Positions 24,912 through 39,196 of a stretch of DNA of 64,000 nucleotides are shown piece after piece (within the stretch, counting starts at the first letter, position 1; every line of letters begins with the position of its first letter). This DNA is from Pigmentiphaga sp. (GTDB taxonomy: Bacteria; Pseudomonadota; Gammaproteobacteria; Burkholderiales; Burkholderiaceae_B): positions 206,614 to 270,613 of the forward strand of contig NZ_JARYGM010000001.1 in NCBI RefSeq assembly GCF_033795525.1, given 5' to 3'. The notes under the pieces are model-generated. The model worked only from the letters and a program-made list of their open reading frames with translations, made no database searches and was not told where the DNA came from. The position numbers and the translations under genes were made by a program.

Positions 24912-24988
24912 TGGTCGGGGCGGCGGGATTCGAACTCGCGACCCTCTGCTCCCAAAGCAGATGCGCTACCAGGCTGCGCTACGCCCCG
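24912..24988 (-). tRNA. tRNA-Pro (anticodon TGG)
   Basis: The reverse complement is CGGGGCGTAGCGCAGCCTGGTAGCGCATCTGCTTTGGGAGCAGAGGGTCGCGAGTTCGAATCCCGCCGCCCCGACCA. Anticodon loop is TTTGGGA. There is one A:C mismatch in the T stem. Confidence 0.9.
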
Positions 24989-25050
24989 ATTGGCGTCATT
25001 GTATCTCAAACCCTCTAGCGGCCCCACCGGTAAATGAGCCAAGCTATGGT

Positions 25051-25290
25051 ATGGCGCTTTACCCATTGACCCACAAGGCCATCGTCAATCAGCAGCCTCT
25101 CGCGAAGGAGGGATTCTTGAACGGTGGAGGTGGATTGTACCTGCGTCTGCGGCCCGTTGGGTCCAGACTCCGGCCTTTCCGCTTCTCCACGCCAATGGAC
25201 AAACCGGGTCCCGCGGGCAGAATCTCGACCGGCCGTTACTTGAGAATCCGCCTGCCATCCGAACGGCAGTCTGCCCCATCAGGGTGTCCA
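25051..25290 (+). pseudogene. remnant of a P4-type tyrosine integrase (N-terminal DUF4102-like part only)
   Basis: LTHKAIVNQQPLAKEGFLNGGGGLYLRLRPVGSRLRPFRF...GRYLRIRLPSERQ resembles LTD..I..L.P..K...L.DGGGLYL.V.P.GSK.W.FRY...LG.YP..SLAEAR. No catalytic domain follows. Confidence 0.55.
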
Positions 25291-25453
25291 GATTCGGAAG
25301 CGGTGTCATGCTGTGCCGGCGACTTTACGTACAAGCGTTCCGCCCCTTTAGACCGGCCCACCTGGCGTATGACTTGTCATGTGTCATGCCATAAATGGAC
25401 CATGGACTTCGGCGGCCCACTATGAGCAGCTCCCGCCCTGAAATGGACCAATG

Positions 25454-25942
25454 CTATCGGAATCTGTCATAGCGCCGGCTGATCGTCTCCGCAACACACA
25501 CAGGCTTGGTCGAACCCTCGCGCTCGATGCGAGACTCCCAAGTCAGCTCGACGACGCTGACGTCCGGCCGGTCGGGCATGGACGGTAGCCGCTGCATGTC
25601 CTTCAGCCTGATGCGGGCGCGAACCCTGCTGTCCCGAGGAACCGGCGCGGGGAACCGGACCTTGTTGAGCCCATAGTTGATGCTCATGTCGGCGGGCGGC
25701 AGCGCCAGGGCCTGGCGCATCAAATCCGGCAAGAGAGAAAGCGTCAGGTAACCGTGCGCAATCGTGGTGCCAAACGCCGACTCCTGTCGGGCCCGCTCCT
25801 GATCCACGTGTATCCATTGATGGTCCCCCGTAGCTTGCGCGAACAGGTCTATGCGTTGCTGGTCCACGCGCACCCACGGGCTGACGGCAATTTCTTTTCC
25901 GATCTGTTCATGCAGTTCATCGAGCGTCCGGATGGTCCGCAT
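25454..25942 (-). CDS. MaoC-like (R-specific) enoyl-CoA hydratase/dehydratase
   Basis: VDQQRIDLFAQATGDHQWIHVDQERARQESAFGTTIAHGYLTLSLL is the MaoC hotdog motif. Confidence 0.85.
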   Translation of the reverse strand: MRTIRTLDELHEQIGKEIAVSPWVRVDQQRIDLFAQATGDHQWIHVDQERARQESAFGTTIAHGYLTLSLLPDLMRQALALPPADMSINYGLNKVRFPAPVPRDSRVRARIRLKDMQRLPSMPDRPDVSVVELTWESRIEREGSTKPVCVAETISRRYDRFR

Positions 25943-26750
25943 TCTTGTCTCCTGGCAATGAAAAGACAGGCCATTGGTAAGACAGTGGCTCCCGCGCCAA
26001 CAGCCTTCGGGCTGCGTCGGCGTGATAACTCGTGGAGTAGGCGATGGCCTGCGAGGACGTTTCCATATCGCACATCGAACCGAGATCGGCGGACAGGGAT
26101 CTGGCGAGGGCCGCTTTGGTCATGGCGAACGCGCTGCGCGGCAGGCGAGTGAGCGCCCGTGCGATCATTTCGGCGCGCTGGTCGAGCGCATCGGGCGGAA
26201 CCACTTCGCTGGCAATGCCCAGCTGCAAAGCTTCTTCCGCGCCGATCTCGCGGTTCGAATACAGCAGCGTCTTTGCGCGCGCCCATCCCACGATGCGCGG
26301 CAGCGTAAAGAGCGAACATAGATCGGGCACCAGCCCAATGCGGAGGAACGACATGGATAACCGGACCCGGTTCGTGGCGATCACGACGTCGGCCGCCAGC
26401 ACGAGACTGCAGCCCGCGCCATAGGCGCATCCGTCGACCGCCATGATCACGGGCTTGGGAAGTTCCAGCAGGCGGCGCGCGCCGTCCGTGGCGGAAAGAA
26501 TGCGATCGCGGCCCGCTTCGGCGTCGAGCTCGCCGGGGCGCATGTCGGCGATGTCGCCACCCGCGCAGAAATGTCCGCCTTCCGCGCGCAGCAGTACCGC
26601 TCGCACATGCTCATCGTGTTCGGCGCGGCCCAAGCAGGCCCATAGTTCGTCGCGCATGGCCGAGTTCATGGCGTTGCGCTTTTCCGGCCTCGCCAACGTG
26701 ATGGATGCAAGGCGTCCTTCAACGCGATAGCGGATGAATGAGTGGCTCAC
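25917..26750 (-). CDS. enoyl-CoA hydratase/isomerase (crotonase) family protein
   Basis: ITLARPEKRNAMN, HFCAGGDIADM and VIMAVDGCAYGAGCSLVLAADV. The GTG 26750 start overlaps the LysR stop (GTGA). Confidence 0.8.
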   Translation of the reverse strand: MSHSFIRYRVEGRLASITLARPEKRNAMNSAMRDELWACLGRAEHDEHVRAVLLRAEGGHFCAGGDIADMRPGELDAEAGRDRILSATDGARRLLELPKPVIMAVDGCAYGAGCSLVLAADVVIATNRVRLSMSFLRIGLVPDLCSLFTLPRIVGWARAKTLLYSNREIGAEEALQLGIASEVVPPDALDQRAEMIARALTRLPRSAFAMTKAALARSLSADLGSMCDMETSSQAIAYSTSYHADAARRLLAREPLSYQWPVFSLPGDKNADHPDAR

Positions 26751-27664
26751 GGGCGGCCCCTCCTCGGGCCTGGCCGGGACAGCCGCTTCTTGGCGATTTC
26801 TATGAAACACTCCCGCAGCCGGGATTCGGCGCCGGCGTTCCACGCCAGCGCGAGCGTCAACGTAAGCGGGCCCGTCGGTCCGGCCAGCGGGCGGAAGGCA
26901 ACCTGTTTCATCCGGATGTTCTCCGAGGAGGAGGGCACGAGCGCCATGCCCATGCCGCTGGATACGAGCATGATCATGCTAGGTATGTCGCCCACTTCCT
27001 GGACGATGCGAGGGTGGAAGCCCGCATCGTTGCACAGGCGGGTGATGCGATGCGAGAGCGACGAGTCGAGCGAACGGTTGAATGCGATCAGCGGCTCGCC
27101 CGCCAGCCGCGCGATGTCTATTTTTTCGCGCCGGCTCAGAGGATGATCGACAGAGAGCGCCACCACCAGACGTTCCCGGGCAAAAGGCAGCAGCGCGATA
27201 TCCGACGAGGCGACGGGCGGCCGCACGATGCCCAGATCCAGCTTGCCTTGTAGGATGGCCTCCACTTGCTGGGGAGTCAGCATGCTGTCGTGCAGCTCCA
27301 GCTGCACCTCCGGATACTGGCTTCGATAATCGGCGAGCAGCCGCGGCAATTCGGAATAAATGGCCGAGTTGGTAAAGCCCAGACTGAGCCTGCCCATTTG
27401 CCCCGCGTCGGCCCGTATGGCCGTGTCGCGGGCCCGCTCGGCTGCCTTCAGGATATCCCGGGCTTCAGGCATAAAGGCCCGGCCGGCATCGGTAAGCGCC
27501 ACATGCCGTTTGGTGCGGACGAACAGGACGACGCCCAGCGATTCCTCCAGAAGCCGGATCTGCCGCGACAGCGGCGATTGGGCGATGTGCACCCGCTCGG
27601 CCGCGCGGCCGAAGTGGAGCTCTTCGGCAACGGCAAGAAAATATCGGAGTTGTTTCAGATCCAT
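26747..27664 (-). CDS. LysR-family transcriptional regulator
   Basis: MDLKQLRYFLAVAEELHFGRAAERVHIAQSPLSRQIRLLEESLGVVLF. Confidence 0.9.
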   Translation of the reverse strand: MDLKQLRYFLAVAEELHFGRAAERVHIAQSPLSRQIRLLEESLGVVLFVRTKRHVALTDAGRAFMPEARDILKAAERARDTAIRADAGQMGRLSLGFTNSAIYSELPRLLADYRSQYPEVQLELHDSMLTPQQVEAILQGKLDLGIVRPPVASSDIALLPFARERLVVALSVDHPLSRREKIDIARLAGEPLIAFNRSLDSSLSHRITRLCNDAGFHPRIVQEVGDIPSMIMLVSSGMGMALVPSSSENIRMKQVAFRPLAGPTGPLTLTLALAWNAGAESRLRECFIEIAKKRLSRPGPRRGRP

Positions 27665-27678
27665 GGTCGGGGCGGCGG
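27664..27678 (+). repeat. 15-nt copy of the 3' end of tRNA-Pro (TGGTCGGGGCGGCGG)
   Basis: Identical to 24912-24926 in the same orientation. It starts at the LysR start codon. Confidence 0.4.
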
Positions 27679-27694
27679 CTCAGGGTGGCGTTTT

Positions 27695-29143
27695 CTAAGA
27701 CCCCCAGCGAGGCAGGCTTGCTCCCAGCAGCAAGGGGGGGCTGCTCCAGAACGCCGGCGTGCCCGAAAACCGGGTGATCGGAGCAAGATAATCGAGCTTC
27801 CCGAAGGGGCTGTCCATATGCAGCACCTCCGGCTCCAGCGGCGCTGCGGGCGGGCCGGACTCCACAAGCCCCATGTCCTGGACCCACATGCAGGTGCGGG
27901 CAAGCGCGAGACTGACGCGATAGCTTCCGCCCTCGGCCGCGCGACGCCTCAATGCGGCCAGTACGCCCGCGGCGCCAAGGTAGGCCGTGGTGTAGTCCGC
28001 CACCAAGGTAGTGGGCGGCAGGCGGGGGGAGTCCGGCCCGCCCTCCACCCAGCTGATGCCCGTCGTCGATTGCGCATTGTGGTCGAATCCCACGCGGTGC
28101 GCCCATGGGCCGCCGGCATCGCCATAGGCGCTCAAATCGACGTAGACCAGGCCGGGATGTCCCGCGATCATGTTCTCCAATGACAGGCCGCGCCGAGCAA
28201 GACTGCCAGGGCTGTACGACTGGACGACGACGTCCGCCCCGGCTATCAGCTCGCGTACGGTAGCCAGATCCCGGCGCGTGTCGAAGTCGAGAAATGCGCT
28301 CCGCTTGCCGAACCCGGTATCGAGCATGAAGTTCAGCGGGTCCGTCTGGGTCGGGGCGGAAATGCGCAACACGTCGGCGCCTTGCTCGGCGAGCGTCCGG
28401 GTCAGCCCCGGGCCGGCAAGAATATGGCTAAGGTCCAGAACCCTCAGCCCCGCGAGCGGCCGCGGGCCGGTCTGGCGCCACAGCCGGGGGGCGCCCGGCG
28501 CCGCCCGTTCGATATGGATCACGGGAAGTTTGGACAGAGCCCGGCCGTGCGGGTGGCTGCGCCATTCCTCGGGCGAACGGACCAGCGAAACCGGCAGGTT
28601 GGCCGCAATGCACGCATCCTCGAGCTCCTGGCCGGACCAGGTAGCCACCGCCTTCTCAATCGCCTCCCGGTTGTTCGGGGCGCCCAGCAGCGTTAGCAGT
28701 TCGTTGCGCAATTGCGGACGGGTGAAGACCAGATAGACCCACCGCCCGTCCCGCGTCCGGAAATAGCCGTTGCCGGGCTCGTTAAAGGTGAAGTCGAACC
28801 CTATCGGATAGCCATTCTGCTTGAGGTATCGCGAAGGATGCAGCGCATGCGCCGCCCTTCCGATTTCGACGGACACGTCCTGGCCGGCATGCCCGTGTTC
28901 CCGGGCAAGACTGGCCAGCGCGGTGCCCTGCGCCGCGGCGGCAACCGCCATGGCGCCTGCCAGCCGATGCGGACTATCGATGGCCGGGTCGGCTCCCTTT
29001 ATCGATACTTCGCCGCCGGAATCCGCGCGTTTCAGCCCCAGGACTTCCAGGCATGCGTCCAGCTGCGCATTGGCAACCGGGTCGGAATCGGAATGCGCGC
29101 TTGCCGGCGCATCCGCAGCCTCTTGCCGCGATTCGCACATCAT
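27695..29143 (-). CDS. family III (CaiB/BaiF) CoA-transferase with atypical N-terminal region
   Basis: LAGLRVLDLSHILAGPGLTRTLAEQGADVLRI, GKRSAFLDF, DVVVQSYSPGSL and GFDHNAQSTTG. These motifs start only at about residue 216. Confidence 0.8.
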   Translation of the reverse strand: MMCESRQEAADAPASAHSDSDPVANAQLDACLEVLGLKRADSGGEVSIKGADPAIDSPHRLAGAMAVAAAAQGTALASLAREHGHAGQDVSVEIGRAAHALHPSRYLKQNGYPIGFDFTFNEPGNGYFRTRDGRWVYLVFTRPQLRNELLTLLGAPNNREAIEKAVATWSGQELEDACIAANLPVSLVRSPEEWRSHPHGRALSKLPVIHIERAAPGAPRLWRQTGPRPLAGLRVLDLSHILAGPGLTRTLAEQGADVLRISAPTQTDPLNFMLDTGFGKRSAFLDFDTRRDLATVRELIAGADVVVQSYSPGSLARRGLSLENMIAGHPGLVYVDLSAYGDAGGPWAHRVGFDHNAQSTTGISWVEGGPDSPRLPPTTLVADYTTAYLGAAGVLAALRRRAAEGGSYRVSLALARTCMWVQDMGLVESGPPAAPLEPEVLHMDSPFGKLDYLAPITRFSGTPAFWSSPPLLLGASLPRWGS

Positions 29144-30696
29144 TGGTTCTCCACGTGGCGATCGCTTCCATCGCCATATCGCATTTTCAGCCTCAGCTTG
29201 TCGATCTTGCCCGCCCCGTTCTTGGGCAAGTCATCCACGATGAAAATCTTCGTCGGCTGCTTGTAGCGGGCGAGCCTGCCTTGCAAGTGCGCCATGATTC
29301 GGCGTTCGTCCAGGCCGCATCCAGGAACGGGACTGACAACGGCGCAGACGGTTTCGCCCCATTTCGGATGAGGAATGCCGATAACGGCCGACTCCAGAAT
29401 TTCGGGGTTTTCGGCCAGCTTGGCTTCCACCTCGGCAGCGTAGATGTTCTCGCCGCCGCTGACGATCATTTCCTTGATGCGCCCCGCGACGGTCAGGAAC
29501 CCTTCGCCGTCCAGCCGCCCCAGGTCGCCGGTGCGCAACCACCCGTCTTCGAGCACGGCTGCCGATTCGGCCGCCTGATTCCAATAGCCGAGCATGACGT
29601 TGGGGCCGCGCATCCGGATTTCTCCGACCCCATCGCTGCCGGCAGCCGCGATGCGGACGTCGCCGAACATGGGGGCCTGACCCGCCGTCATGGCCTTGGA
29701 GGCGGCCGAGCCCGGAGCAAGGGCGGTGACCAGCGGCGCGGCCTCGGTCAGCCCGTAGCGCTGGATCACGGCGATGCCTCGGTGGTGATAGCGCTTGATC
29801 AGCGCATCAGGGACCGGGGCTCCCCCGACGATGATGCCGCGCAGGCTGGACAGATCGGCGCGGTAGAACTCGTTCTGTTCTGCAATGAACTGGTACATGG
29901 CTGGTACGCCGGCGATGATCGAAATGCGCTCCGAGGCGATACGCTCGATGATGCTGCCGGGGTCGAACGATTTTTCCAGATGGATCGTGGCGCCGCGCAG
30001 AAAGCTTTCCATGACCGTCGAGACGGGCGCGGCATGGAACAGGGGCGCCGATACGAGCACTCTGTCGGTGGGCAGCCCGCCCTGAATAAGAATCGTATTG
30101 ATGGTATTCCAGAAAATATTGCCATAGCTGAGCATGACGCCCTTGGGACGGCCGGTGCTGCCCGAGGTATAGAGCAGCCATGCCGTTTCCTCCCACCCTG
30201 CCTGCCGTAGATCGGCGAGATGGTCGGGCTCGACGGAGCAGGCCTCTTCGAATTCGTCGTTGCCGCGCCTGTCAGAGCGCAGGAAGCGACCGCAGCCGGT
30301 CCGCCGCGCCACCTCGGCCTGAATGGACGCGAACTCCGCGCCATGGATCAGCAGAGTCGCGCCGCAGTCCTGCATCATGGCCACGACCTCGGGCGCGGCC
30401 AGCCGGAAGTTCAACGGAACGAAGATCGCTCCCAGACTGGCGGCGGCAAACATCGTCACCAGAAAGCGCACGTCGTTGAAGTCCAGCAGGGCGACGCGGT
30501 CGCCTGGCCGCACCCCCGACGCCCGCATCCAGGCGGCCAAGCCTTGCGCCATCCGGTGCATGCGCCCATACGTCCAGCGTTCGGCCTCTTCTCCTTTCCT
30601 CCAATAAACCATCGACAGCGCATCGGGACTTCTTTCGGCATGCTTGGCCAGCCAGTGCTGAAGATTCGGATTGGGCATGGACCAAGGGTGCTTCAT
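29140..30696 (-). CDS. AMP-dependent acyl-CoA synthetase/ligase
   Basis: LLYTSGSTGRPKGV, YGLTEA, TGDLGRLDGEGFL and GKIDK. ATGA overlaps at both ends. Confidence 0.9.
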   Translation of the reverse strand: MKHPWSMPNPNLQHWLAKHAERSPDALSMVYWRKGEEAERWTYGRMHRMAQGLAAWMRASGVRPGDRVALLDFNDVRFLVTMFAAASLGAIFVPLNFRLAAPEVVAMMQDCGATLLIHGAEFASIQAEVARRTGCGRFLRSDRRGNDEFEEACSVEPDHLADLRQAGWEETAWLLYTSGSTGRPKGVMLSYGNIFWNTINTILIQGGLPTDRVLVSAPLFHAAPVSTVMESFLRGATIHLEKSFDPGSIIERIASERISIIAGVPAMYQFIAEQNEFYRADLSSLRGIIVGGAPVPDALIKRYHHRGIAVIQRYGLTEAAPLVTALAPGSAASKAMTAGQAPMFGDVRIAAAGSDGVGEIRMRGPNVMLGYWNQAAESAAVLEDGWLRTGDLGRLDGEGFLTVAGRIKEMIVSGGENIYAAEVEAKLAENPEILESAVIGIPHPKWGETVCAVVSPVPGCGLDERRIMAHLQGRLARYKQPTKIFIVDDLPKNGAGKIDKLRLKMRYGDGSDRHVENQ

Positions 30697-32075
30697 GCGG
30701 GGCGACCCTCCGAGGAAGTTCCAGACAGGCGACCTCCCGCCATGAGCAGGCCGTCGACCATGGCCAGCGTACTGCCCAGGTAGGATTCCGGGCCGCACAG
30801 CCGTTCGATTCCCGCTGCGCCGCCCAGCGCATCGCAGATATCCGCCTGTTCGGCCAGGACTTGCGAAAGCGGTCGAGCGTTTTCCGCAGCCTGCTTGCAG
30901 GCTTCGTAGACGCGTTCATGGGCGGCCTGGCGGCCCAGCACCGAGGCGGCCGCCATCATGATGGCCTCCGCGACGATCAAGCCGCCGGTGATGTCCAGGT
31001 TCTGGCGCATGCGCTGCTTGTCGACGGTCAGTCCCTCGAGCATGAAGACCGCGTTCGCCAAGGCCCCTGCCGTCAGCACGAAGCTCTGCGGAATGGCAAG
31101 CCATTCCGCCTGCCATGGACCGGTCGAACGTTCGAAATCGTGCACGGCCGCATCGAACATCAGGGCGGCGTTCTGGCGCACCGCCTTGGCGTTCGCAATG
31201 ATCACCTCGCACGAAATGGGATTGCGCTTTTGCGGCATCGTGCTGGACGCGCCCCTACCGGGAACGAAGGGCTCGGCCACTTCGCCGAACTCATTGGCCA
31301 TCATGAGCGATACATCGGTGGCGATCTTGGCCAGCGATCCCGTCAGCAAGGCCAGGAAGCCGACCGCTTCGGCCAGGTTGTCGCGCGCCACGTGCCAGGT
31401 GATCGCCGGAACACCAAGATCCAGCTCCTCGCACAGCGCGCGCTGGACTTGCAGTCCTTGGCTTCCCAGCGAAGCGAGCGTACCGGCCGCGCCGGAAAAG
31501 GATCCCACTAGAAGTCTGGGTTTGAGCTCCCGCAGCCTGGCCATGTGGCGGTCGAACATCGACAGCCACACCGCCGCCTTGTAGCCGAACGTGATGGGTA
31601 GCGCGTGCTGCAGATGCGTGCGGCCTGCCATCAGGGTCTCGCGATGATCCTGAGCCAGGCGCGCAAGCGTCGCCTGAAGCATGCCGGTCTGTTTCTCGAG
31701 TTCCCCTATCGCTTGCCGAAGCTGCAGCACCAGCGCGGTATCCATGATGTCTTGCGTCGTCGCGCCCCAGTGCACATATCGTCCCGCCTCTCCTGCCGCT
31801 TCGGACAGTTGCCTCACCAGGGGCAGGATGGGATAGCCGACGATCAGCGTCTCGCGCGCCAGACGATCGATATCGGCAGTAAAGGCGCCGGCGGCGCGGG
31901 CGATGTCGGTCGCGGCCTGGCCGGGAATGATGCCGACGCGGGCCTGGGCTCTGGCCAACGCCGCTTCGACTTCCACGTAGCGGTCAATCAACGCTTCGTC
32001 GCAGAAAACCTGGCGCATCTTCGCGGTACCGAACATATCGCCGAAGATCCGCGAATCGATGAGGGATGTACTCAT
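30693..32075 (-). CDS. fumarate-lyase superfamily protein (adenylosuccinate lyase / 3-carboxymuconate cycloisomerase-like)
   Basis: HWGATTQDIMDT, GRTHLQHALPITFG and the signature GASSTMPQKRNP. Confidence 0.8.
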   Translation of the reverse strand: MSTSLIDSRIFGDMFGTAKMRQVFCDEALIDRYVEVEAALARAQARVGIIPGQAATDIARAAGAFTADIDRLARETLIVGYPILPLVRQLSEAAGEAGRYVHWGATTQDIMDTALVLQLRQAIGELEKQTGMLQATLARLAQDHRETLMAGRTHLQHALPITFGYKAAVWLSMFDRHMARLRELKPRLLVGSFSGAAGTLASLGSQGLQVQRALCEELDLGVPAITWHVARDNLAEAVGFLALLTGSLAKIATDVSLMMANEFGEVAEPFVPGRGASSTMPQKRNPISCEVIIANAKAVRQNAALMFDAAVHDFERSTGPWQAEWLAIPQSFVLTAGALANAVFMLEGLTVDKQRMRQNLDITGGLIVAEAIMMAAASVLGRQAAHERVYEACKQAAENARPLSQVLAEQADICDALGGAAGIERLCGPESYLGSTLAMVDGLLMAGGRLSGTSSEGRPA

Positions 32076-32108
32076 GGTCGTTTCTCTGTACTGGTTTCGC
32101 AAGGCTGC

Positions 32109-33020
32109 TCAGACCGGATCCCAGCTGAACACGTCTGCCGAGCGGTCGAGCGCATAGAAGCTGGCGCGCATGGCCGGCATGGCGTGTTGCGCGATCGTCT
32201 CGGGCGTCCAGCCTTCGCTGCGTTGCACCGAGCGCAGCGGGCGGTTCTGGCTGATCAGGAAGAGCTCATTGGCGCGCACGGCGAACACCTGGCCGGTCAC
32301 GTCGCCGGCGGCATCCGAGGCCAGATAGACCATCATGGGCGCGATCTTCGCGGTCTCCATGGATTTGATCTTCTCGACCCGGGCTTGCTCCTCCGGCGTA
32401 TCCGCGGGAATGGACCCGATCAGCCGGCTCCAGGCGAAAGGACACACCGCATTGGCGGTGACGCCATACCGCGCCATATCCAGGGCGACCGACTTTGCCA
32501 AGGCAACGACGCCCAGCTTGGCCGCTGCGTAGTTGGCCTGCCCGAAGTTGCCCACCAGGGCCGAGGCGGATGTCATGAACAGGTAGCGGCCGCCATTGCG
32601 GGACTTGAAGTGCGGCGCAGCCGCGCGGCTGACGTAGAACGAGCCGTTAAGGTGGACGTCGACGACGGCTTTCCATTCCTCTACCGACATCTTGTGGAAG
32701 ATGCGGTCCCGCACGATGCCCGCATTGTTGACCACGATGTCGAGCTGCCCGAAGTTCCGGATCGCCGTGTCCACCATGTTTTGCGCCGCGTTCCAGTCCG
32801 ATACCGAGTCGGTATTGGCGATGGCTTGCCCTCCGGCCGCACCTATTTCGCGAACGACCTCGGCGGCCGGGCCAGCGTCGGCCCCGCTGCCGTCCAAGGA
32901 GGTGCCGAGATCGTTGACCACCACTTTCGCGCCATGCGCGGCCATGGCCAGCGCGATGTCGCGCCCGATACCCCGCCCCGCTCCTGTTACGAGCGCAACT
33001 TTTCCATCCAGCATACCCAT
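32109..33020 (-). CDS. SDR-family oxidoreductase
   Basis: GKVALVTGAGRGIGRDIA, NNAG and YAAAK. GAGGAAAAA SD before ATG 33020. Confidence 0.85.
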   Translation of the reverse strand: MGMLDGKVALVTGAGRGIGRDIALAMAAHGAKVVVNDLGTSLDGSGADAGPAAEVVREIGAAGGQAIANTDSVSDWNAAQNMVDTAIRNFGQLDIVVNNAGIVRDRIFHKMSVEEWKAVVDVHLNGSFYVSRAAAPHFKSRNGGRYLFMTSASALVGNFGQANYAAAKLGVVALAKSVALDMARYGVTANAVCPFAWSRLIGSIPADTPEEQARVEKIKSMETAKIAPMMVYLASDAAGDVTGQVFAVRANELFLISQNRPLRSVQRSEGWTPETIAQHAMPAMRASFYALDRSADVFSWDPV

Positions 33021-33058
33021 TGTTTTTCCTCGATCTTCCGATGATCTGGCAGGCGGCA

Positions 33059-34213
33059 TCAAAGCGTGCCCGCGCTGCCGAAAAGCGCCGTGCATTGGCT
33101 CGACAGCACGGCGCCGTTGCCGTGCGCCAGGCCGACGTCGCAAGAAGCGACCTGGCGCGCGCCGCATTCCCCGCGTATCTGCCGCACGATCTCTATCATG
33201 GCGAGCAGGCCGTACATCCCTGGGTGACAGTACGACAGGCCGCCGCCGTTGGTATTGACGGGCAGGCGCCCGCCCGGCGCGATCGCGCCGTCCGCGACGA
33301 ACGCGCCGCCTTCTCCCTTCCTGCAGAAGCCCAGATCTTCCAGAAACAGAATGGGCGTGATCGTGAAGGCGTCGTAGAGCCCGAGCACGTCCACGTCGGC
33401 GGGCGTGAGCCCGGCCATGGTGAAAGCACTTTGCCCGGATTGAACCGCGCAAGTCGTGGTCAGCTCGGGCATGTTCGAAATCGTGCCGTGCCCCAACGCT
33501 TCGCCCACGCCCAGCACATAGACCGGAGGCTTGCGCAATGAACTGGCGCGGGCGGCCGAGGTCAGCACCATTGCGCCTCCGCCATCCAGGACCAGGCAGC
33601 AGTCGCGCACCGTCAGCGGCTCCGAGACCATGCGCGACGACAACACCTGTTCGATGGCGAGCGGCTCTTTCTCCCACGCGCTGGGGTTCAGGAGCGCCCA
33701 TTGCCTGGCAGCCACGGCGACTTCCGCTAGATGCCTGCGAGTCGTCCCGTATTCATGCATGTGGCGCGATGCAGCCAGGGCATAGGCGCTGACCGGCAGA
33801 AGCGGCCTGAACGGATCCTCATAAGGGTTCGGGTCGGGACGCGATGCCGTAGCGCGGGATACCGACCGCTGGGTGCTGCCATAAGCGATCAAAGCGACTT
33901 GGCAAACCCCGGCCTCGATGGCCTGAACCGCATGGGCGACATGAGACATGAACGACGATCCGCCTATCTGCGTGCCGTCGAAGCAGCGCGGCGAGAGGCC
34001 CAGATACTCCGCCAGCATCATCGGTCCGAACCGGACCTGGGCGCTGGCGACGAACAGTCCGTCCACATCCCGTAGCGACAAGCCCGCGTCCGCCAGGGCT
34101 CGCGTCGTAGCCTGCGCCATCAGGTCCAGCGGCGTCGTGCCGGCCGCCATCTGGCCGAGATCGGACTCCGCGACGCCGACTACCGCCACGCGTCCGCGCA
34201 TCGATGCATTCAT
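33059..34213 (-). CDS. thiolase-like protein (SCP-x/lipid-transfer type, DUF35 partner)
   Basis: VAVVGVAESDLG..., a thiolase-fold N-terminal domain and the C-terminal NTNGGGLSYCHPG. ATGA overlap with the DUF35 gene. Confidence 0.8.
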   Translation of the reverse strand: MNASMRGRVAVVGVAESDLGQMAAGTTPLDLMAQATTRALADAGLSLRDVDGLFVASAQVRFGPMMLAEYLGLSPRCFDGTQIGGSSFMSHVAHAVQAIEAGVCQVALIAYGSTQRSVSRATASRPDPNPYEDPFRPLLPVSAYALAASRHMHEYGTTRRHLAEVAVAARQWALLNPSAWEKEPLAIEQVLSSRMVSEPLTVRDCCLVLDGGGAMVLTSAARASSLRKPPVYVLGVGEALGHGTISNMPELTTTCAVQSGQSAFTMAGLTPADVDVLGLYDAFTITPILFLEDLGFCRKGEGGAFVADGAIAPGGRLPVNTNGGGLSYCHPGMYGLLAMIEIVRQIRGECGARQVASCDVGLAHGNGAVLSSQCTALFGSAGTL

Positions 34214-34662
34214 AGCTCGTTCTCCGCACGGGACGGCAGCGCCACCGTCCGGTCGACGTCGAATACCGGATAAGGCTGACCCTCGTCGGGGCGATGGACA
34301 CGCATGCGTACGCGCGTGCCTATCCTGAGTTCCGAAGGCGGGATACCTTCCACTCGGCTCATCAGCCGGAATCCTTCGTCCATGTCGATGAGCGAGACGT
34401 TCAGCGGCACTTCTCCGCGGTAATGAACCACGGTGGTGGCATAGACCGTGCCGGTTCCGGCCGAGACTTCCCACACCAGGCCGCAGGCGCCCGTGCCGGG
34501 AGCCGCTACGCGGGGATAGAACACAGCGCGGCCCGTCTCGGGGTCGCGCTGGAACACCAGCTTCCCTTGTTCGAGAAACGCCAGGTAGCGTCCGTATGGC
34601 GATTCTTCGGCCAGGCGATTCAGGTCGCGATAGGCGCAATCGCCTGCTTCGGGCCGGCTCAT
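34210..34662 (-). CDS. DUF35 OB-fold/zinc-ribbon acyl-CoA-associated protein
   Basis: About 150 aa. FLEQGKLVFQRDPETGRAVFYPR...YATTVVHY...VSLIDMDEGFRLMSRV is typical of DUF35_N/OB_aCoA_assoc. Translationally coupled to the thiolase. Confidence 0.75.
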   Translation of the reverse strand: MSRPEAGDCAYRDLNRLAEESPYGRYLAFLEQGKLVFQRDPETGRAVFYPRVAAPGTGACGLVWEVSAGTGTVYATTVVHYRGEVPLNVSLIDMDEGFRLMSRVEGIPPSELRIGTRVRMRVHRPDEGQPYPVFDVDRTVALPSRAENEL

Positions 34663-35558
34663 GCCTGCCCCCCGGCGTTGACGTCGACCGACCGCTGCTG
34701 GCGGTCCGCCTCGGTCTGCGCCTTGATCCGCTCGCGCGATTCGCGCCATTGCTCGTCTCCCCACGCCATGTAGTGGGTAAAATACGCGCCCTGCGCCAAG
34801 TGGTAGGCGCCATCGATGGCAATGGTCTCGCCGCTCAGCCATTCGCAGCCGTCCGCCATCAGGAAGGCCGCGAGGTTCGCCAGCTCGTGCATCTGGCCGA
34901 GCCGCCCCGAAGGATTATCCGCGGTCTCGCGGGCGTGCGGATCGCTTCCCGGACGCAGCCGGGCCGTCGCGCCCTCGGTTGGAAAAATCCCGGGAGCAAT
35001 CGCATTGAAGCGAATGCCATAGCGCCCCCATTCGGTAGCCAATGACTTGGTCATGGCGTCCACCCCCGCCTTGGACATGGCCGACGGCACGACGAAGGGC
35101 GATCCCGTACGCACCCAGGTCGTGACGATGGAAAGCACCGATCCCTTGCTTTTCTGTGCGATCCAGCGCTTGCCCACCGATTGCGTCACATAGAAGGTAC
35201 CGTGCAGCACGATGTTGGCGATGGCGTCGAAGCCGTTGGCCGAAAGGTCTTCGGTGCGGCTGACGAAATTTCCGGCGGCATTGTTGACCAGGCCCGTCAG
35301 CGGACCGTCTTCCCAGATGCGCGCCACCATCGCGTCCACGGCCTGGGCATCGCGTATGTCGACGGGCAGCGGAATGACCTGCCCCCCGTAGCGCCGTTGC
35401 AGTTCATCGGCGGCATCCCGCAGCACGCTCTCGCGCCGGCCGCAGATATACAGAATGGCTCCCAGCTCCAGGAGCCGGCCGCCGATCTCCTTGCCGAGGC
35501 CGGACCCGCCGCCGGTTACGAGAATCCGATGTCCTTTGAAAATGCCAGGTGCAAACAT
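34659..35558 (-). CDS. SDR-family oxidoreductase (2,4-dienoyl-CoA reductase-like)
   Basis: ILVTGGGSGLGKEI, NNAAGNF and SAMSKAGVDAMTKSLATEW. Confidence 0.8.
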   Translation of the reverse strand: MFAPGIFKGHRILVTGGGSGLGKEIGGRLLELGAILYICGRRESVLRDAADELQRRYGGQVIPLPVDIRDAQAVDAMVARIWEDGPLTGLVNNAAGNFVSRTEDLSANGFDAIANIVLHGTFYVTQSVGKRWIAQKSKGSVLSIVTTWVRTGSPFVVPSAMSKAGVDAMTKSLATEWGRYGIRFNAIAPGIFPTEGATARLRPGSDPHARETADNPSGRLGQMHELANLAAFLMADGCEWLSGETIAIDGAYHLAQGAYFTHYMAWGDEQWRESRERIKAQTEADRQQRSVDVNAGGQA

Positions 35559-35587
35559 GTCCTATTCGTTCCTTCGCGAAGCTGAGG

Positions 35588-36544
35588 CTAGTCTTCCAAC
35601 AAACCGAGTTCCTGGATCTTCTGCCGGTAGACGGCGTCCTGTTCGGCGATGAGCCGTTCGAATTCCGGCCTGCCAGATGCGTTGAGTTCGAAGCCCGCGG
35701 CGCGCGCCGCCTGCGAGACCTCTTTGCTGGCCAGGGCCTTGTTGACGATCGCATGAAGCCGTTCGGCCGTGGCGGACGGCACGCCAGCGGGGCCGAACAA
35801 CCCGGCCCACGGCACGATGTCCAGGGCGGGAACGCCCAGTTCGGCCAGCGTAGGCGTATCCGGCAGCAGTTCCGTGCGCCGCGATCCCATAACGGCCAAG
35901 GCGCGCAATCGGCCGTTCTCTACGTGGGGAACGCCCATGGTCGTTGCAACGATGGCTTGCACGCGGCCGGCAATGATTTCCTGGATAGCCGGCGGCTCCC
36001 CCTTGAAAGGAATGCGGGTCATCTCCAGCCCCGATTTCTGGCTGAGGTGGGCAAAGGCCATCAGGTTGGTGTTGGAGCCAGTTCCATAGTTGTACTGGCC
36101 CGGCTTGCGCTTGACCTGGGCGACGAACTCCGCGTAGTTGCGTGCCGGAAAGCTGGCGCTCGTGTACAGCAGATAGGTGTAGCGCCCGATGTCGGCGATG
36201 GCGGTAAAGTCCCGGCGGGCTTCATAAGGCGGCTGACGGCGGATGTGCGGGGCAATGGACAGATTGCCCGACGTAGCGAACAACAGCCGGCAACCATCGG
36301 GTTTGGCCTTGAGCACGTCGAGCGCCGCGATCTGGCCTTCGGCGCCGGGCTTGTTCTCCACGACGACGGCCGTGGTGAGCTGCGTCCCCATGTCCTTGGC
36401 CAGCGCACGGGCGATCGTATCGGTGGTCGACCCGGCCGGGAACGGCGCAACCAGCGTGGTGACGGGGCAGTCGGCCGCTTTCGCGGCAGGGGCGGCCGCG
36501 AGCAGGGACAGGACGGCGCTGCGGGCGAATCGGGCGATAAGCAT
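35588..36544 (-). CDS. Bug-family (TctC-like) substrate-binding protein
   Basis: Signal peptide, then TLVAPFPAGSTTDTIARALAKDM...VVENKPGAEGQIAA. Confidence 0.85.
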   Translation of the reverse strand: MLIARFARSAVLSLLAAAPAAKAADCPVTTLVAPFPAGSTTDTIARALAKDMGTQLTTAVVVENKPGAEGQIAALDVLKAKPDGCRLLFATSGNLSIAPHIRRQPPYEARRDFTAIADIGRYTYLLYTSASFPARNYAEFVAQVKRKPGQYNYGTGSNTNLMAFAHLSQKSGLEMTRIPFKGEPPAIQEIIAGRVQAIVATTMGVPHVENGRLRALAVMGSRRTELLPDTPTLAELGVPALDIVPWAGLFGPAGVPSATAERLHAIVNKALASKEVSQAARAAGFELNASGRPEFERLIAEQDAVYRQKIQELGLLED

Positions 36545-36570
36545 CGAAAGGTCTCCCAATCGGTTGGCGC

Positions 36571-37566
36571 TTAGAGTTGTTCGATCTTTGCGCTCTTGAC
36601 GATGCGCGACCACAGTTCGATCTCTTCCTTCTGGCGGGCGCGGAGCGTAGCGGCTCCGCCGGTCGGGACTTCCGCGCCGCGGTCAGTGAAGAACTTGCGA
36701 GTGGCCGGGTCATCGGCGATCTTGGCGAATAACTGTTCGAGCTTGGCAAGCCGGGCCGCAGGAACCCCGGCCGGCGCAACGGCCGCGACCCAGGTAGAAG
36801 CCACGAAATCGGGAAGGCCGGCCTCGGCGGTGGTCGGCACATTGGGCAGGAGCGCCAGCCGTTCCTTGGAGGCCACAGCCAGCGCCTGAGCCGTCCCGCC
36901 TTGCACCGACCCCAGCGCGCTCGTCGCGTCGACGATCGAGAAATCGACCTCCTTGCCGATAAGCGCATTGAGCGCCGCGCCCACGCCCTTGTAGGGAATC
37001 GCGCGAGCGGTAAAGGAGGCCTTTTCCTGGAGCAGTTCGCCCATCAGCTGGTAGCTCGTCGCACCGGCGGAGTAGTTCAGCGAATCGGGTTTGGCGCGGC
37101 CCACCCTCACCAGCGTCTCGATGCTGGAACGCTCGGAGCCCGCAGGCACGGCGATGACGCTCGGCACCGAAGCCATCATGCCCAATGCCGCCAGATCCTT
37201 GAGCGGGTCGTAAGGGAGGGCGCGGTACAGCGCGACGTTGGTCGCCAGGATGGAGGTCGTTCCTATCAGGATCGTGTAGCCGTCGGGCCGCGCGTTCAGG
37301 ACGGCGCCCACACCTATGAGCCCATTCCCGCCCGCTCTGTTCTCCACGACGACCGACTGGCCGGTTTCCTCGCCCAACCGCATGGCGTAATAGCGGGCGG
37401 CAATGTCGGTGATGCTGCCCGGCACGAACGGGACGACGAACTTGATCGCATGGGAGGGAAAATCGTCGGCCGCTGCCGTACCGCTCGCGGCGCTAACCGC
37501 TATCGCGAAAGCAAGGGCCAGCATGCGAGAGGGCAAACCGGCGCGAGGGCGGTGGGAAAAGAACAT
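36571..37566 (-). CDS. Bug-family (TctC-like) substrate-binding protein
   Basis: Signal peptide, then IKFVVPFVPGSITDIAARYYAMRL...VVENRAGGNGLIG. GGAGAC SD present. Confidence 0.85.
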   Translation of the reverse strand: MFFSHRPRAGLPSRMLALAFAIAVSAASGTAAADDFPSHAIKFVVPFVPGSITDIAARYYAMRLGEETGQSVVVENRAGGNGLIGVGAVLNARPDGYTILIGTTSILATNVALYRALPYDPLKDLAALGMMASVPSVIAVPAGSERSSIETLVRVGRAKPDSLNYSAGATSYQLMGELLQEKASFTARAIPYKGVGAALNALIGKEVDFSIVDATSALGSVQGGTAQALAVASKERLALLPNVPTTAEAGLPDFVASTWVAAVAPAGVPAARLAKLEQLFAKIADDPATRKFFTDRGAEVPTGGAATLRARQKEEIELWSRIVKSAKIEQL

Positions 37567-37885
37567 GATCGTCTCCTGTGCGGCTGCCGACGCAGCCATA
37601 GCCTTGTTGTGAGGCTATGGTAGGAGGACGGTCTATGCTCGTCCAACACTTAAATTCGCACGATTGAGACCTGATGAGTCTTTATTCTGAACGACTGATA
37701 AGGACCGACGGCAGTACATCGCCCAGTTCCGACATGGCCTCCGCTAATGACAATAGTTAGTGCGCATCGCCGATAGGGAAGGAATTCGAAGCTATTCGCC
37801 TTGATGAGCGACGACCGGCTTTTGCGTGAGCTTAGCGCCTAAGGCAAACTCTGTGCGATGCAAAGCACCGCGAACGGGAGACCCC

Positions 37886-38697
37886 ATGTCCAAGCCACCG
37901 GATCTCGATGCATATTTCGGCCGTATCGGCTATGTCGGCGCCGCTACCCCTACGGCCGACACGCTGCGCAACCTCGTCCTGCACCATGTGCGGACCATCG
38001 CCTTCGAAAGCGTCGACCCTTTCCTGGGCCGGCCGGTCAGCCTGGCACTCGCCGACATCGAGCAGAAACTGGTCCACGGCCGCCGTGGCGGTTACTGCTA
38101 CGAGCACAATGGCTTGTTCGGCGCGGTGCTGCGTGCGCTGGGTTTCAAGGTGACGACGCTGTCGGCGCGAGTCTTGTGGGGGCAGCCAGAAGACGCTACC
38201 GTACCGCGCGCCCACATGCTCTTGAAGGTGGAGCTGGGCGATGCGCCGCTGATCGTGGACGTCGGGTTCGGCGGCCAGACCCCCACGTGCCCGCTAAGGC
38301 TGCACACCGATCTTCCCCAGCCCACGCCCCACGGCCATTGCCGACTGCTGTCCGACGAGCAGGGCTGGCGGCTGCAGGCCGATGTGCGAGGTGAGTGGCG
38401 CACCCTGTACCGGTTCGGCATCGAGCCGGATTTTCCGCCCGATTACGAGATAGCCAATTACTACCTGTCCACGCATCCGGAATCGCCTTTCGTATCGAAC
38501 CTGATCGCAGCACGCGCCACCGCCCAAGGCCGGCTGGCCTGCACAACCGGGACTACACGCGTTACGGCGCGGATGGCAGCGCCGTGCGCCGCAGGCTGGA
38601 AAGCGCCGCAGAGATCAGGGAAGTGCTGCGCCGCGAATTCCTGGTGGAACTGCCGCATACCGCCGAAGGCGACCGTAAACTGGACGCGCTTCCCTAG
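37886..38697 (+). pseudogene. arylamine N-acetyltransferase (NAT), frameshifted
   Basis: DLDAYFGRIGY, RGGYCYEHNGLF (catalytic Cys) and LIVDVGFGG lie in one frame up to ...ATAQGRLA at about 38539. The expected C-terminus LHNRDYTRYGADGS...LVELPH continues in the -1 frame to the TAG at 38695-38697. Confidence 0.75.
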
Positions 38698-38809
38698 GGG
38701 GCAGCGTCGCTCCCACGTCAGCCGGCCTATAATCCTACGATCGGGCGGCAGCACCCTGTGCGCCGAACACGCCGGCGCCACGCCGCCGGCCACTACCATT
38801 CAAGGCCCC

Positions 38810-39196
38810 ATGGAGACCACCCACCGGCTGCGTCGATGTCTCGCCTGGCTGGCGCTTTGCGCCATGTGCCTAGGGGTCTTCGCGCCGGTTGTTTCGCAGT
38901 GGTTGGCGAATGCGCGAACCGTCGTATGGGTCCACATCTGCAGCGAGGCCGGCGCAGCGCCGGTGGCGATCGCCGTATCGCACGGACACTCGCCGAAGGC
39001 CCCGGCCGTTGGGGATGGCTACTGCCCTTATTGCACCCTGGCGCAGCATTGGCCGTTCGCGCCGCCAATGTCCGCCGGCTCGATCCCGCCTCCCCAGGGC
39101 GCTACGCTGGCCTATGCCGGCTCGGCGCTTCCTTCCCCGTCCCTTGCTCCGCGCTGGCACGCGCACGCACCGCGCGCGCCGCCCCTTCTTTCCTGA
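38810..39196 (+). CDS. cruR: DUF2946-family CruR-like copper-responsive upstream ORF
   Basis: N-terminal hydrophobic helix, CPYC at 39023-39034, and a C-terminus ...HAPRAPPLLS* with RAPP at 39173-39184. It precedes a TonB receptor and a PepSY gene. Confidence 0.65.
   Translation: METTHRLRRCLAWLALCAMCLGVFAPVVSQWLANARTVVWVHICSEAGAAPVAIAVSHGHSPKAPAVGDGYCPYCTLAQHWPFAPPMSAGSIPPPQGATLAYAGSALPSPSLAPRWHAHAPRAPPLLS

Follow-up and report, generated by a model that had tools for sequence, protein, structure and literature searches.

A cluster of 12 open reading frames (ORFs) on the minus strand, at 25454-37599 of a 64-kb window from a genome of the genus Pigmentiphaga (G000:C11:206614-270613; host assembly of 4.46 Mb, 91% complete), represents an uncharacterised form of CoA-dependent acid catabolism in which several enzymes are non-canonical. 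Comparison across genomes provides strong evidence that the 12 genes form a real functional unit, a conserved operon. Our tentative reading is one catabolic operon under LysR control, shared horizontally, that would serve the breakdown of an unsaturated di- or tricarboxylic acid and in which a lyase would create or reposition the C=C bond without a flavoprotein; we favour this reading while stopping short of calling it probable. The window denotes the whole 64-kb stretch analysed, and Thl is used as shorthand for the thiolase-fold protein of the cluster. Families were assigned to the ORFs from Pfam and NCBIfam profile scores and solved relatives from PDB matches. The features are as follows.

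37600..37825, minus strand: intergenic region, presumed promoter and LysR operator (226 nt; the only long non-coding gap adjoining the cluster)
36571..37599, minus strand: Bug1, TctC-family periplasmic binding protein (tripartite tricarboxylate transporter; PF03401, 194 bits)
35588..36544, minus strand: Bug2, second TctC-family binding protein (PF03401, 172 bits)
34659..35558, minus strand: SDR1, 2,4-dienoyl-CoA-reductase-like SDR (best PDB match human mitochondrial DECR, 1w6u)
34210..34662, minus strand: DUF35 OB-fold protein without zinc-ribbon cysteines (OB_ChsH2_C, PF01796, 59.5 bits; ATGA overlap with the SDR1 stop)
33059..34213, minus strand: Thl, thiolase-fold protein of the PRK06158 family, probable C-C cleaving enzyme (NF004811, 617 bits)
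32109..33020, minus strand: SDR2, MFE-2-type (3R)-hydroxyacyl-CoA-dehydrogenase-like SDR (best PDB match 2ET6)
30693..32075, minus strand: lyase of the fumarase/aspartase superfamily, 3C8T/Tad1 clade (Lyase_1 and ADSL_C)
29140..30696, minus strand: AMP-forming acyl-CoA ligase (AMP-binding and AMP-binding_C; ATGA overlap with the lyase stop)
27695..29143, minus strand: family III CoA-transferase, 482 aa, apparently circularly permuted (CoA_transf_3, PF02515, 205 bits)
26747..27664, minus strand: LysR-type regulator inside the operon (HTH_1 and LysR_substrate; no NCBIfam model at cut-off)
25917..26750, minus strand: crotonase-fold protein without the two hydratase glutamates (ECH_1, 166 bits)
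25454..25942, minus strand: MaoC-type (R-specific) enoyl-CoA hydratase (MaoC_dehydratas, 89.7 bits)

The initial annotation of this DNA had described 12 co-directional minus-strand genes, and Pfam and NCBIfam recover the same families in the same order. The five start/stop overlaps that it listed can be read directly in the sequence, four of them ATGA (34659-34662, 34210-34213, 30693-30696, and 29140-29143) and one GTGA (26747-26750). A further overlap, of 26 nt, joins the end of the crotonase gene to the beginning of the MaoC gene, and the remaining junctions are gaps of 26-38 nt. Terminator-like sites show no excess within the cluster (10 observed versus 9.2 expected from shuffled sequence), and the sole strong one follows tRNA-Pro (24912-24988), downstream of the last cluster gene. 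Bug1, the first ORF of the operon, may start at 37599 or 37566; Bug2 likely starts at 36544 rather than at a GTG at 36613; and the likely start of the lyase is the ATG at 32075, its longest ORF extending to 32102. Beyond the 226-nt gap upstream of the first gene (37600-37825), in which no consensus sigma-70 site was found, lie a divergent NAT/DUF2946 ORF and a TonB-receptor operon.

Of 15 congeneric genomes, 3 carry all 12 genes in the same order (78-96% amino-acid identity), and the operon is therefore accessory within Pigmentiphaga; it is carried by the named isolate P. kullae K24. Eleven of the 12, with a single TctC gene, are colinear at 56-86% identity in assemblies GCA_001482255.1 and GCA_001482235.1 (loci L121 and L122), where the flanks differ from those of the window (glcDEF on one side, mnmA on the other). 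In Piscinibacter koreensis (L127) the same families are spread over three to four transcription units: TctC-MaoC-crotonase-SDR1-DUF35-Thl-SDR2, a divergent LysR gene, ligase-lyase, and, on the opposite strand, esterase-CoA-transferase-TctC. A metagenome contig (L129) carries, beside a GntR gene, lyase-MaoC-ligase-ABC binding protein-SDR1-DUF35-Thl-SDR2, that is, a seven-gene core of lyase, MaoC, ligase, SDR1, DUF35, Thl, and SDR2, and a betaproteobacterial metagenome-assembled genome (L051) has GntR next to lyase-TctC-Thl-DUF35, with SDR and CoA-transferase genes nearby. The most conserved block is SDR1-DUF35-Thl-SDR2, at 68-86% identity across the beta- and alphaproteobacterial loci compared; MaoC orthologues are present in L121, L127, and L129, and the LysR gene is retained inside the colinear clusters. 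The link of the lyase with the DUF35/thiolase-fold pair recurs in independent gene orders, which ties them functionally, and because the set survives rearrangement across genomes, the evidence for one shared function is strong. The Piscinibacter locus (L127:1854-4803) adjoins SSB, DUF932, and relaxase genes, which suggests that this cluster is carried on a conjugative element.

Two metagenome sister clusters, L123:3464-14867 and L126:5806-13294, represent a second cluster type, with an alpha/beta-hydrolase (PcaD-like), a PcaC-like CMD, an AMP ligase, DUF35, a thiolase-like protein, a lyase of the 3C8T clade, and an MmgE/PrpD protein, and with no hydratase. Their thiolase-like proteins are 79-82% and their lyases 56-57% identical to the cluster proteins, and L123 additionally carries TctC genes and the long form of the CoA-transferase. 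The layout of these clusters resembles a beta-ketoadipate pathway built from non-orthologous parts. A phage-type integrase gene lies downstream of the L126 cluster.

The composition of the cluster is unusual in that a lyase stands where a dehydrogenase might be expected from related loci. The 64-kb window has no Acyl-CoA_dh_1 (PF00441) match, which agrees with the earlier report of no acyl-CoA dehydrogenase in the cluster, and the nearest such genes on the same contig are ~127 kb and ~152 kb away. We compared ~90 Thl/DUF35 loci in all, 80 of them species-representative. Across the ~90, a dehydrogenase or a lyase is found nearby, never both; among the 80, ~28 have an acyl-CoA dehydrogenase within 9 kb, the lyase occurs only at the P. 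kullae orthologue, and no locus has both. Bradyrhizobium carries the SDR1-DUF35-Thl-SDR2 block with two acyl-CoA dehydrogenases and no lyase; no acyl-CoA dehydrogenase was seen at the lyase-type loci L121, L127, L129, L123, and L126; and two other thiolase-like paralogues of the Pigmentiphaga genome lie within ~3 kb of one. This pattern supports the idea, raised in the initial annotation, that the embedded lyase takes the place of the dehydrogenase.

The closest PDB matches of the lyase are 3C8T (546 bits), Ustilago Tad1 (405 bits), and CMLE (357 bits). Seven residues matter in Tad1, the trans-aconitate decarboxylase of Ustilago maydis (PMC11880804), and all seven (Gln152, Ser320, Ser321, Arg360, Thr362, Trp365, and Trp369) are conserved in the lyase, as judged from a phmmer alignment to 9H4H; 3C8T is reported to be up to 46% identical to Tad1 in a published homology-modelling study (PMC6789909). 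The genome's own PcaB, which shares 35% identity with the lyase and has a different active-site loop, departs from Tad1 at Thr362, at Trp369, and at other positions. The lyase scores below both PcaB cut-offs (TIGR02426, 354 versus 355.75 bits; PRK09053, 490 versus 595 bits), and its earlier description as adenylosuccinate-lyase/CMLE-like gives way to a place in the 3C8T/Tad1 clade, distinct from the CMLE of this genome. Identification as a housekeeping PcaB or PurB was rejected, because pcaB-pcaD, pcaHG, and catB are located elsewhere: the true pcaB is directly followed by pcaD (G000:C29:379729-381852, locus L118) and flanked by genes for a Zn-dependent dehydrogenase and malic enzyme, pcaHG lies apart from pcaB-pcaD at C11:781866-783145, and catB is likewise outside the cluster. 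No characterised bacterial member of the 3C8T clade was found in the literature or among the library sequences searched.

The closest relatives of the lyase, 58-66% identical, are common in Pseudomonas, Bradyrhizobium, and others. They lie in mini-operons (L028-L106; e.g., L030:10001-12744 and L033:10001-15167) with a divergent GntR/UTRA regulator and a DctA-like or TctC carrier, often together with a class II fumarase-like (FumC) gene or an M29 aminopeptidase gene, in hosts that include Pseudomonas, Bradyrhizobium, Bosea, Belnapia, and others. In the lyase tree, the sequences from the window, one congener, L121, and L129 group weakly (SH-aLRT 80), and the Piscinibacter lyase is placed elsewhere, among the GntR-DctA lyases. 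Because the cluster lyases interleave with the latter, the chemistry of the clade is probably common to the CoA clusters and the GntR mini-operons.

The second departure from textbook enzymes concerns the pair formed by Thl and DUF35. Thl exceeds the cut-off of NF004811 (617 versus 421 bits), has 4U4E as its best PDB match (405 bits), with SCP2-type proteins also among the solved matches, and is distant from Ltp2 (169 bits). Active-site positions were taken from phmmer alignments to five solved proteins. Gly85, in IGGSSF, aligns with the nucleophilic Cys of AACASG in the true thiolase 7YVY, ungapped to the end of the helix; LYDAFT sits where SCP2 thiolases carry HDCF, Ltp2 YDHF, and Sal YDCY; and the thiolase His is kept in SYCHPG. 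Residues G84, G85, and S87 and the YDAF and SYCHPG motifs are invariant among 120 homologues (74-96% identity), and thousands of homologues exist at at least 74% identity. The meaning of the HDCF/YDxF motif and the residues of the steroid side-chain aldolases Ltp2 and Sal follow published work (PMC12329534). Two marks of such retro-aldolases, Gly at the nucleophile position and a Tyr aligned with Ltp2 Tyr294 (Tyr280), are found in Thl; their second catalytic residue is not, as Ala282 occupies the position of Sal Cys304 and His330 aligns with Ltp2 Tyr344, with Tyr328 and Cys329 adjacent.

On the DUF35 side, zf-ChsH2 scores 21 bits, under its cut-off, and there are no Cys pairs. In an alignment of nine DUF35 partners of the thiolase-fold family (that of the cluster and eight others) none has the C-x2-C...C-x2-C zinc-ribbon motif, which is kept in the more distant L051 homologue. 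The C-terminal OB fold is present, and the gene directly precedes the Thl gene, with the ATGA overlap. Thl was originally described as an SCP-x-type thiolase, but Gly85 replaces the nucleophilic Cys, YDAF replaces HDCF, and the DUF35 partner lacks the zinc ribbon; the likeness to steroid aldolase modules stands as far as the nucleophile-position Gly and the YDxF Tyr and fails at the second catalytic residue. Textbook thiolysis by Thl is unlikely, because the protein lacks the nucleophilic Cys and carries an aldolase-type Tyr.

Genomic contexts point in another direction. Thl/DUF35 pairs occur with family I CoA-transferase subunits, with a PcaD-like hydrolase, a PcaC-like CMD, and a lyase, and with sets of acyl-CoA dehydrogenase, crotonase, and SDR2 (in Bordetella, Achromobacter, and Variovorax), neighbours that argue for a 3-oxoacyl-CoA or a close derivative as the predicted cleavage substrate. 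The tension between the missing nucleophilic Cys and the 3-oxoacyl-CoA context is the most interesting biochemical point of the cluster. No assayed member of the 4U4E/PRK06158 cysteine-less thiolase-fold family was found. The genome also holds a paralogous minimal module (G000:C29:501075-504954; L120:7076-10954) in which a divergent IclR gene is followed by genes for Bug, a family III CoA-transferase of canonical type (441 aa), a DUF35 protein without zinc ligands, and a thiolase-like protein; the last is 68% identical to Thl and has GGCSF instead of GGSSF.

The remaining enzymes are likewise assignable to families more readily than to textbook reactions. SDR1 aligns end to end with human mitochondrial DECR (1w6u, 217 bits; PRK07677, 243 versus a cut-off of 318). 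It keeps DECR Asn148, Ser210, and Lys214, and at the position of Tyr199 it has Trp, as do five of five orthologues examined, so that the DECR1 active site is not fully reproduced. Among the loci sampled, SDR1 orthologues are found only with lyase-type clusters and the Bradyrhizobium block. SDR2 has the yeast (3R)-hydroxyacyl-CoA dehydrogenase 2ET6 as its best PDB match (341 bits), followed by HSD17B4 (PRK07791, 283 versus a cut-off of 373), and every orthologue carries Y164-x3-K of the SDR catalytic Ser-Tyr-Lys set; the (3R) stereospecificity of MFE-2-type dehydrogenases is predicted for SDR2. In the crotonase, aligned with 13 crotonases of the same genome, Ser and Phe stand at the canonical GGGCE and QPE glutamate positions, and a conserved Asp in GL(V/I)PD is common to the L121 and L127 orthologues. 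PaaG is among its three best NCBIfam models, all under their cut-offs, and the GL(V/I)PD pattern recalls isomerase-type members such as PaaG, which we take to be an isomerase; the protein is probably an isomerase-type or other non-hydratase member of the family. MaoC, whose translation reads GDHQWIH, retains the hydratase-2 Asp and His and is the only plausible hydratase of the cluster. The AMP-forming ligase receives no specific assignment (best NCBIfam model PRK06187, 442 versus a cut-off of 476).

In the CoA-transferase, positions 1-209 of CoA_transf_3 match residues 230-428. A profile built from 14 canonical paralogues matches with its positions 4-203 at residues 228-416, and its positions 165-333 give weak but colinear matches to residues 37-202 in four orthologues. 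The protein is probably circularly permuted, because the N-terminal half of the fold lies at 228-416 and the later part matches 37-202. The long form also occurs in sister clusters (465-483 aa), and a conserved GFD, aligned with the GYD of formyl-CoA transferase, which carries the catalytic Asp, preserves the family III catalytic residue. Among species-representative genomes it has only five close loci, and the sole distant one (L110) has an unrelated context; its use as an anchor for comparative genomics was dropped for these reasons. No ligand can be assigned to either binding protein, because their solved relatives are all about equally distant: Bug27, BugE, TphC, and AdpC at 150-186 bits for Bug1, and matches of 118-152 bits for Bug2. 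Bug1 shares 90% identity with its orthologues in congeners, 63% with that of L121, and 54% with that of Piscinibacter; for Bug2 the values are 88-90% in congeners and 57% in Piscinibacter.

From the gene content, the conservation of the set across gene orders, the active-site motifs, and the finding that no sampled locus has both lyase and dehydrogenase, we infer an order of steps, a reaction for each enzyme, and a substrate class. The two TctC-family proteins would capture the acid, and the 3C8T/Tad1-clade lyase would perform a cofactor-free step that makes or shifts a C=C bond, by elimination, lactone opening, or Tad1-like decarboxylation; because the lyase would supply or reposition the double bond, no acyl-CoA dehydrogenase would be needed. 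The AMP-forming ligase would prime CoA activation and the long family III CoA-transferase would recycle CoA. The conjugated enoyl- or dienoyl-CoA would then be processed by a set that mirrors peroxisomal auxiliary beta-oxidation, in which SDR1 would act as a reductase of the DECR type, the Glu-less crotonase would isomerise the double bond, MaoC would be the R-hydratase, and SDR2 would be the (3R)-hydroxyacyl-CoA dehydrogenase. The C-C bond of the resulting 3-oxo- or 3-hydroxyacyl-CoA would be split by the cysteine-less Thl and the zinc-less DUF35.

That the substrate cannot be read from the sequence, as the initial annotation had held, is our view as well, and the leading guesses are muconate-like dienedioates or aconitate/itaconate-like acids. 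The former are in keeping with the reductase/isomerase logic and the PcaBCD-like sister clusters; the latter agree with the lyase's Tad1-like active site, with the TctC proteins, and with the PrpD gene found in the sister clusters. A bolder version of the proposal, which we regard as rather doubtful, is that the cluster represents an undescribed, widespread, horizontally shared CoA pathway in which a Tad1/3C8T lyase replaces the dehydrogenase, the Cys-less Thl and zinc-free DUF35 perform a new cleavage chemistry, and a permuted CoA-transferase serves the pathway. If true, Thl would either be a retro-aldolase of a third kind or carry out a thiolysis that forms no acyl-enzyme intermediate.

Several observations weigh against the operon reading with the lyase as a source of the double bond. 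The contrast between lyase and dehydrogenase comes from a small sample, with few independent lyase-type lineages, and the lyases of lyase-type clusters do not form one clade. The mini-operons of their closest relatives are without any CoA enzyme, and this context, together with the interleaved tree, appears to fit fumarate release better than a muconate-type reaction. The Trp in place of Tyr199 means that SDR1 may not be a dienoyl-CoA reductase, and if Thl were a retro-aldolase, the role of SDR2 would be unclear. The L129 contig has neither crotonase nor CoA-transferase, which makes both dispensable to the core.

Each of the other explanations leaves some cluster genes unexplained. Under a Bbs-like route for a substituted succinate or itaconate, which refines the idea of the initial annotation and which we judge unlikely, an alkylidene- or arylidene-succinate would arise from a substituted aconitate through decarboxylation by the Tad1-like lyase, the CoA-transferase would turn this product into 2-ylidene-succinyl-CoA, the compound made by BbsG in toluene degradation, and hydration, oxidation, and cleavage would give an acyl-CoA and succinyl-CoA, the latter feeding the transferase. 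The presence of all seven Tad1 residues, including the Thr362 and Trp369 missing from the genome's PcaB, of a family III CoA-transferase, and of the DUF35/thiolase-fold pair and the SDRs is consistent with such a route, as are TctC proteins suited to a tricarboxylate and, in the second cluster type, a gene beside the lyase of the PrpD family, which acts on aconitate-type acids; moreover, itaconate, the Tad1 product, is the parent of the Bbs intermediate phenylitaconyl-CoA. Yet no Bbs-specific model comes near its cut-off (BbsB, 157/750 bits), the crotonase cannot be a BbsH-type hydratase, SDR1, of the C=C-reductase type, has no role in the scheme, Thl lacks the Cys expected for BbsB-type thiolysis, and no neighbouring gene points to a natural substituted aconitate. 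It is decidedly unlikely, in our view, that the lyase instead frees fumarate from an acid N-, O-, or S-linked to C2 of succinate, the remaining acid being CoA-activated and shortened. The superfamily most commonly catalyses elimination to fumarate, the lyases of lyase-type clusters interleave on the tree with those of the GntR mini-operons, and these mini-operons, with C4-dicarboxylate (DctA-type) or TctC carriers, fumarase-like genes, and aminopeptidases, contain no further catabolic enzymes. Fumarate release explains neither the missing dehydrogenase nor the DECR-type reductase, however; the active-site residues match Tad1, which frees no fumarate, and the cluster has no amine-, alcohol-, or thiol-handling enzyme.

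A route from trans-aconitate through itaconate (lyase) and itaconyl-CoA to citramalyl-CoA (MaoC), with Thl/DUF35 as a retro-aldolase that yields acetyl-CoA and pyruvate in place of the usual citramalyl-CoA lyase, seems very unlikely to us. It would draw on the Tad1-like active site of the lyase and on the Gly and YDxF Tyr that are hallmarks of Ltp2 and Sal; in formal terms, a 3-hydroxyacyl-CoA undergoes a retro-aldol reaction when citramalyl-CoA is cleaved, itaconate degradation in Pseudomonas aeruginosa relies on a MaoC-type hydratase together with a family III CoA-transferase, and both the organism and the lyase family are associated with soil and plants. But SDR1, SDR2, the crotonase, and the ligase would have no role, although SDR1-DUF35-Thl-SDR2 is the most conserved block, the counterparts of Ltp2 Tyr344 and Sal Cys304 are not in place (Ala in YDAF), and the second cluster type has no hydratase. 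That there is no single pathway at all, only adjacent, independent Bug/CoA-transferase/hydratase cassettes that are co-directional by accident, is highly improbable. Such cassettes are numerous in Alcaligenaceae; this genome has many paralogous ones, such as the IclR-associated Bug-CoA-transferase-DUF35-thiolase-like module on C29, as well as 14 canonical CoA-transferase paralogues and 14 crotonases, and the cluster has a regulator gene in its middle and a 15-nt tRNA-Pro 3'-end repeat just upstream of the LysR start. Against this, the whole set travels together in differing surroundings and orders, five junctions are start/stop overlaps, and the repeat is missing in congeners with the same LysR-crotonase-MaoC arrangement.

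The repeat is an exact direct repeat of the tRNA-Pro 3' end, at 24912-24926 and 27664-27678. A genomic island bounded by it was considered and set aside, since congeners with an identical arrangement lack it and its position relative to the tRNA, on the 5' side, is the wrong one. Around the cluster, the 465 nt between tRNA-Pro and the MaoC stop (24989-25453) contain no convincing ORF, and the divergent ORF upstream, at 37826-39196, is a single 456-aa reading frame that joins an arylamine N-acetyltransferase domain to DUF2946.

The LysR-controlled operon that we favour gives the SDR1-DUF35-Thl-SDR2 block a specific context, in which a Tad1-like lyase is present and a dehydrogenase absent, and its presence in P. 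kullae K24 would allow the chemistry to be tested directly in an isolate. Knowledge of the substrate would annotate many genes now called 'acetyl-CoA acetyltransferase', 'adenylosuccinate lyase', or 'CaiB/BaiF' in soil Burkholderiales, and the cluster could reveal a bacterial use of Tad1-type chemistry. Literature searches found no paper on this gene cluster, and the GapMind/RB-TnSeq paper does not mention its families.

Comparison with known systems shows where the cluster departs from each of them. It shares with the Bbs pathway of Thauera and Aromatoleum (BbsEF, G, H, CD, and AB) a family III CoA-transferase, SDRs, a crotonase fold, and a DUF35 and thiolase-fold pair, and in both a dicarboxylate would be handled via CoA esters, as we propose for the cluster. 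The bbs resemblance noted in the initial annotation therefore stands at the level of families and logic, but membership does not: the BbsB model NF053628 scores 157 against a cut-off of 750 bits, 7PXP_C reaches 150 bits and aligns only from residue 95, and there is no BbsG-type dehydrogenase. One of the SDRs is of the C=C-reductase type and not of the BbsC/D type, and BbsD and BbsE/F are weak PDB matches; the crotonase and its orthologues lack both catalytic glutamates of BbsH-type hydratases; and in place of the two-subunit BbsEF there is one 482-aa, permuted-looking polypeptide (31-43 bits to the 9FN0 chains). Thl lacks the nucleophile Cys, DUF35 lacks zinc ligands, and the lyase, the ligase, and MaoC are extra.

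The peroxisomal/mitochondrial auxiliary beta-oxidation set (DECR, enoyl-CoA isomerase, MFE-2, and SCPx thiolase) contains the best solved relatives of SDR1, SDR2, and MaoC, and the isomerase-like crotonase completes the likeness. The cluster, however, encodes separate bacterial polypeptides, has Trp for DECR Tyr199, lacks both SCP2-thiolase cysteines in Thl, and has its ties to a lyase and to the uptake of carboxylates, not to fatty acids. PcaB of the beta-ketoadipate pathway lies in the same superfamily branch as the lyase, which falls just short of TIGR02426 (354 versus 355.75 bits), and in the sister cluster type a lyase is accompanied by the cleavage pair, a ligase, and genes of PcaC-like and PcaD-like type; the difference is that this genome has its own pcaB-pcaD and pcaHG and the cluster has neither CMD nor enol-lactonase. 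The lyase resembles Tad1 (PMC11880804) and the 'fumarate lyase' 3C8T (405 and 546 bits) with seven Tad1 residues conserved, and Tad1-like decarboxylation is one candidate activity, but it lies in a catabolic operon and Tad1 in an itaconate-producing cluster. With the Ltp2-ChsH2(DUF35) and Sal-Shy(DUF35) pairs (PMC12329534), the cluster shares Gly at the nucleophile position, the YDxF Tyr, a DUF35 partner, and a MaoC hydratase; it differs in that the second catalytic residue (Tyr344/Cys304) is not conserved, the thiolase His (SYCHPG) is kept, the DUF35 protein is separate and without zinc ligands, there are no steroid genes, and the match to Ltp2 is distant (169 bits). Within the 4U4E/PRK06158 family of cysteine-less thiolase-fold proteins, the same GGSSF, YDxF, and SY(C/T)HPG motifs recur, and Thl shows no family-level difference from its members.

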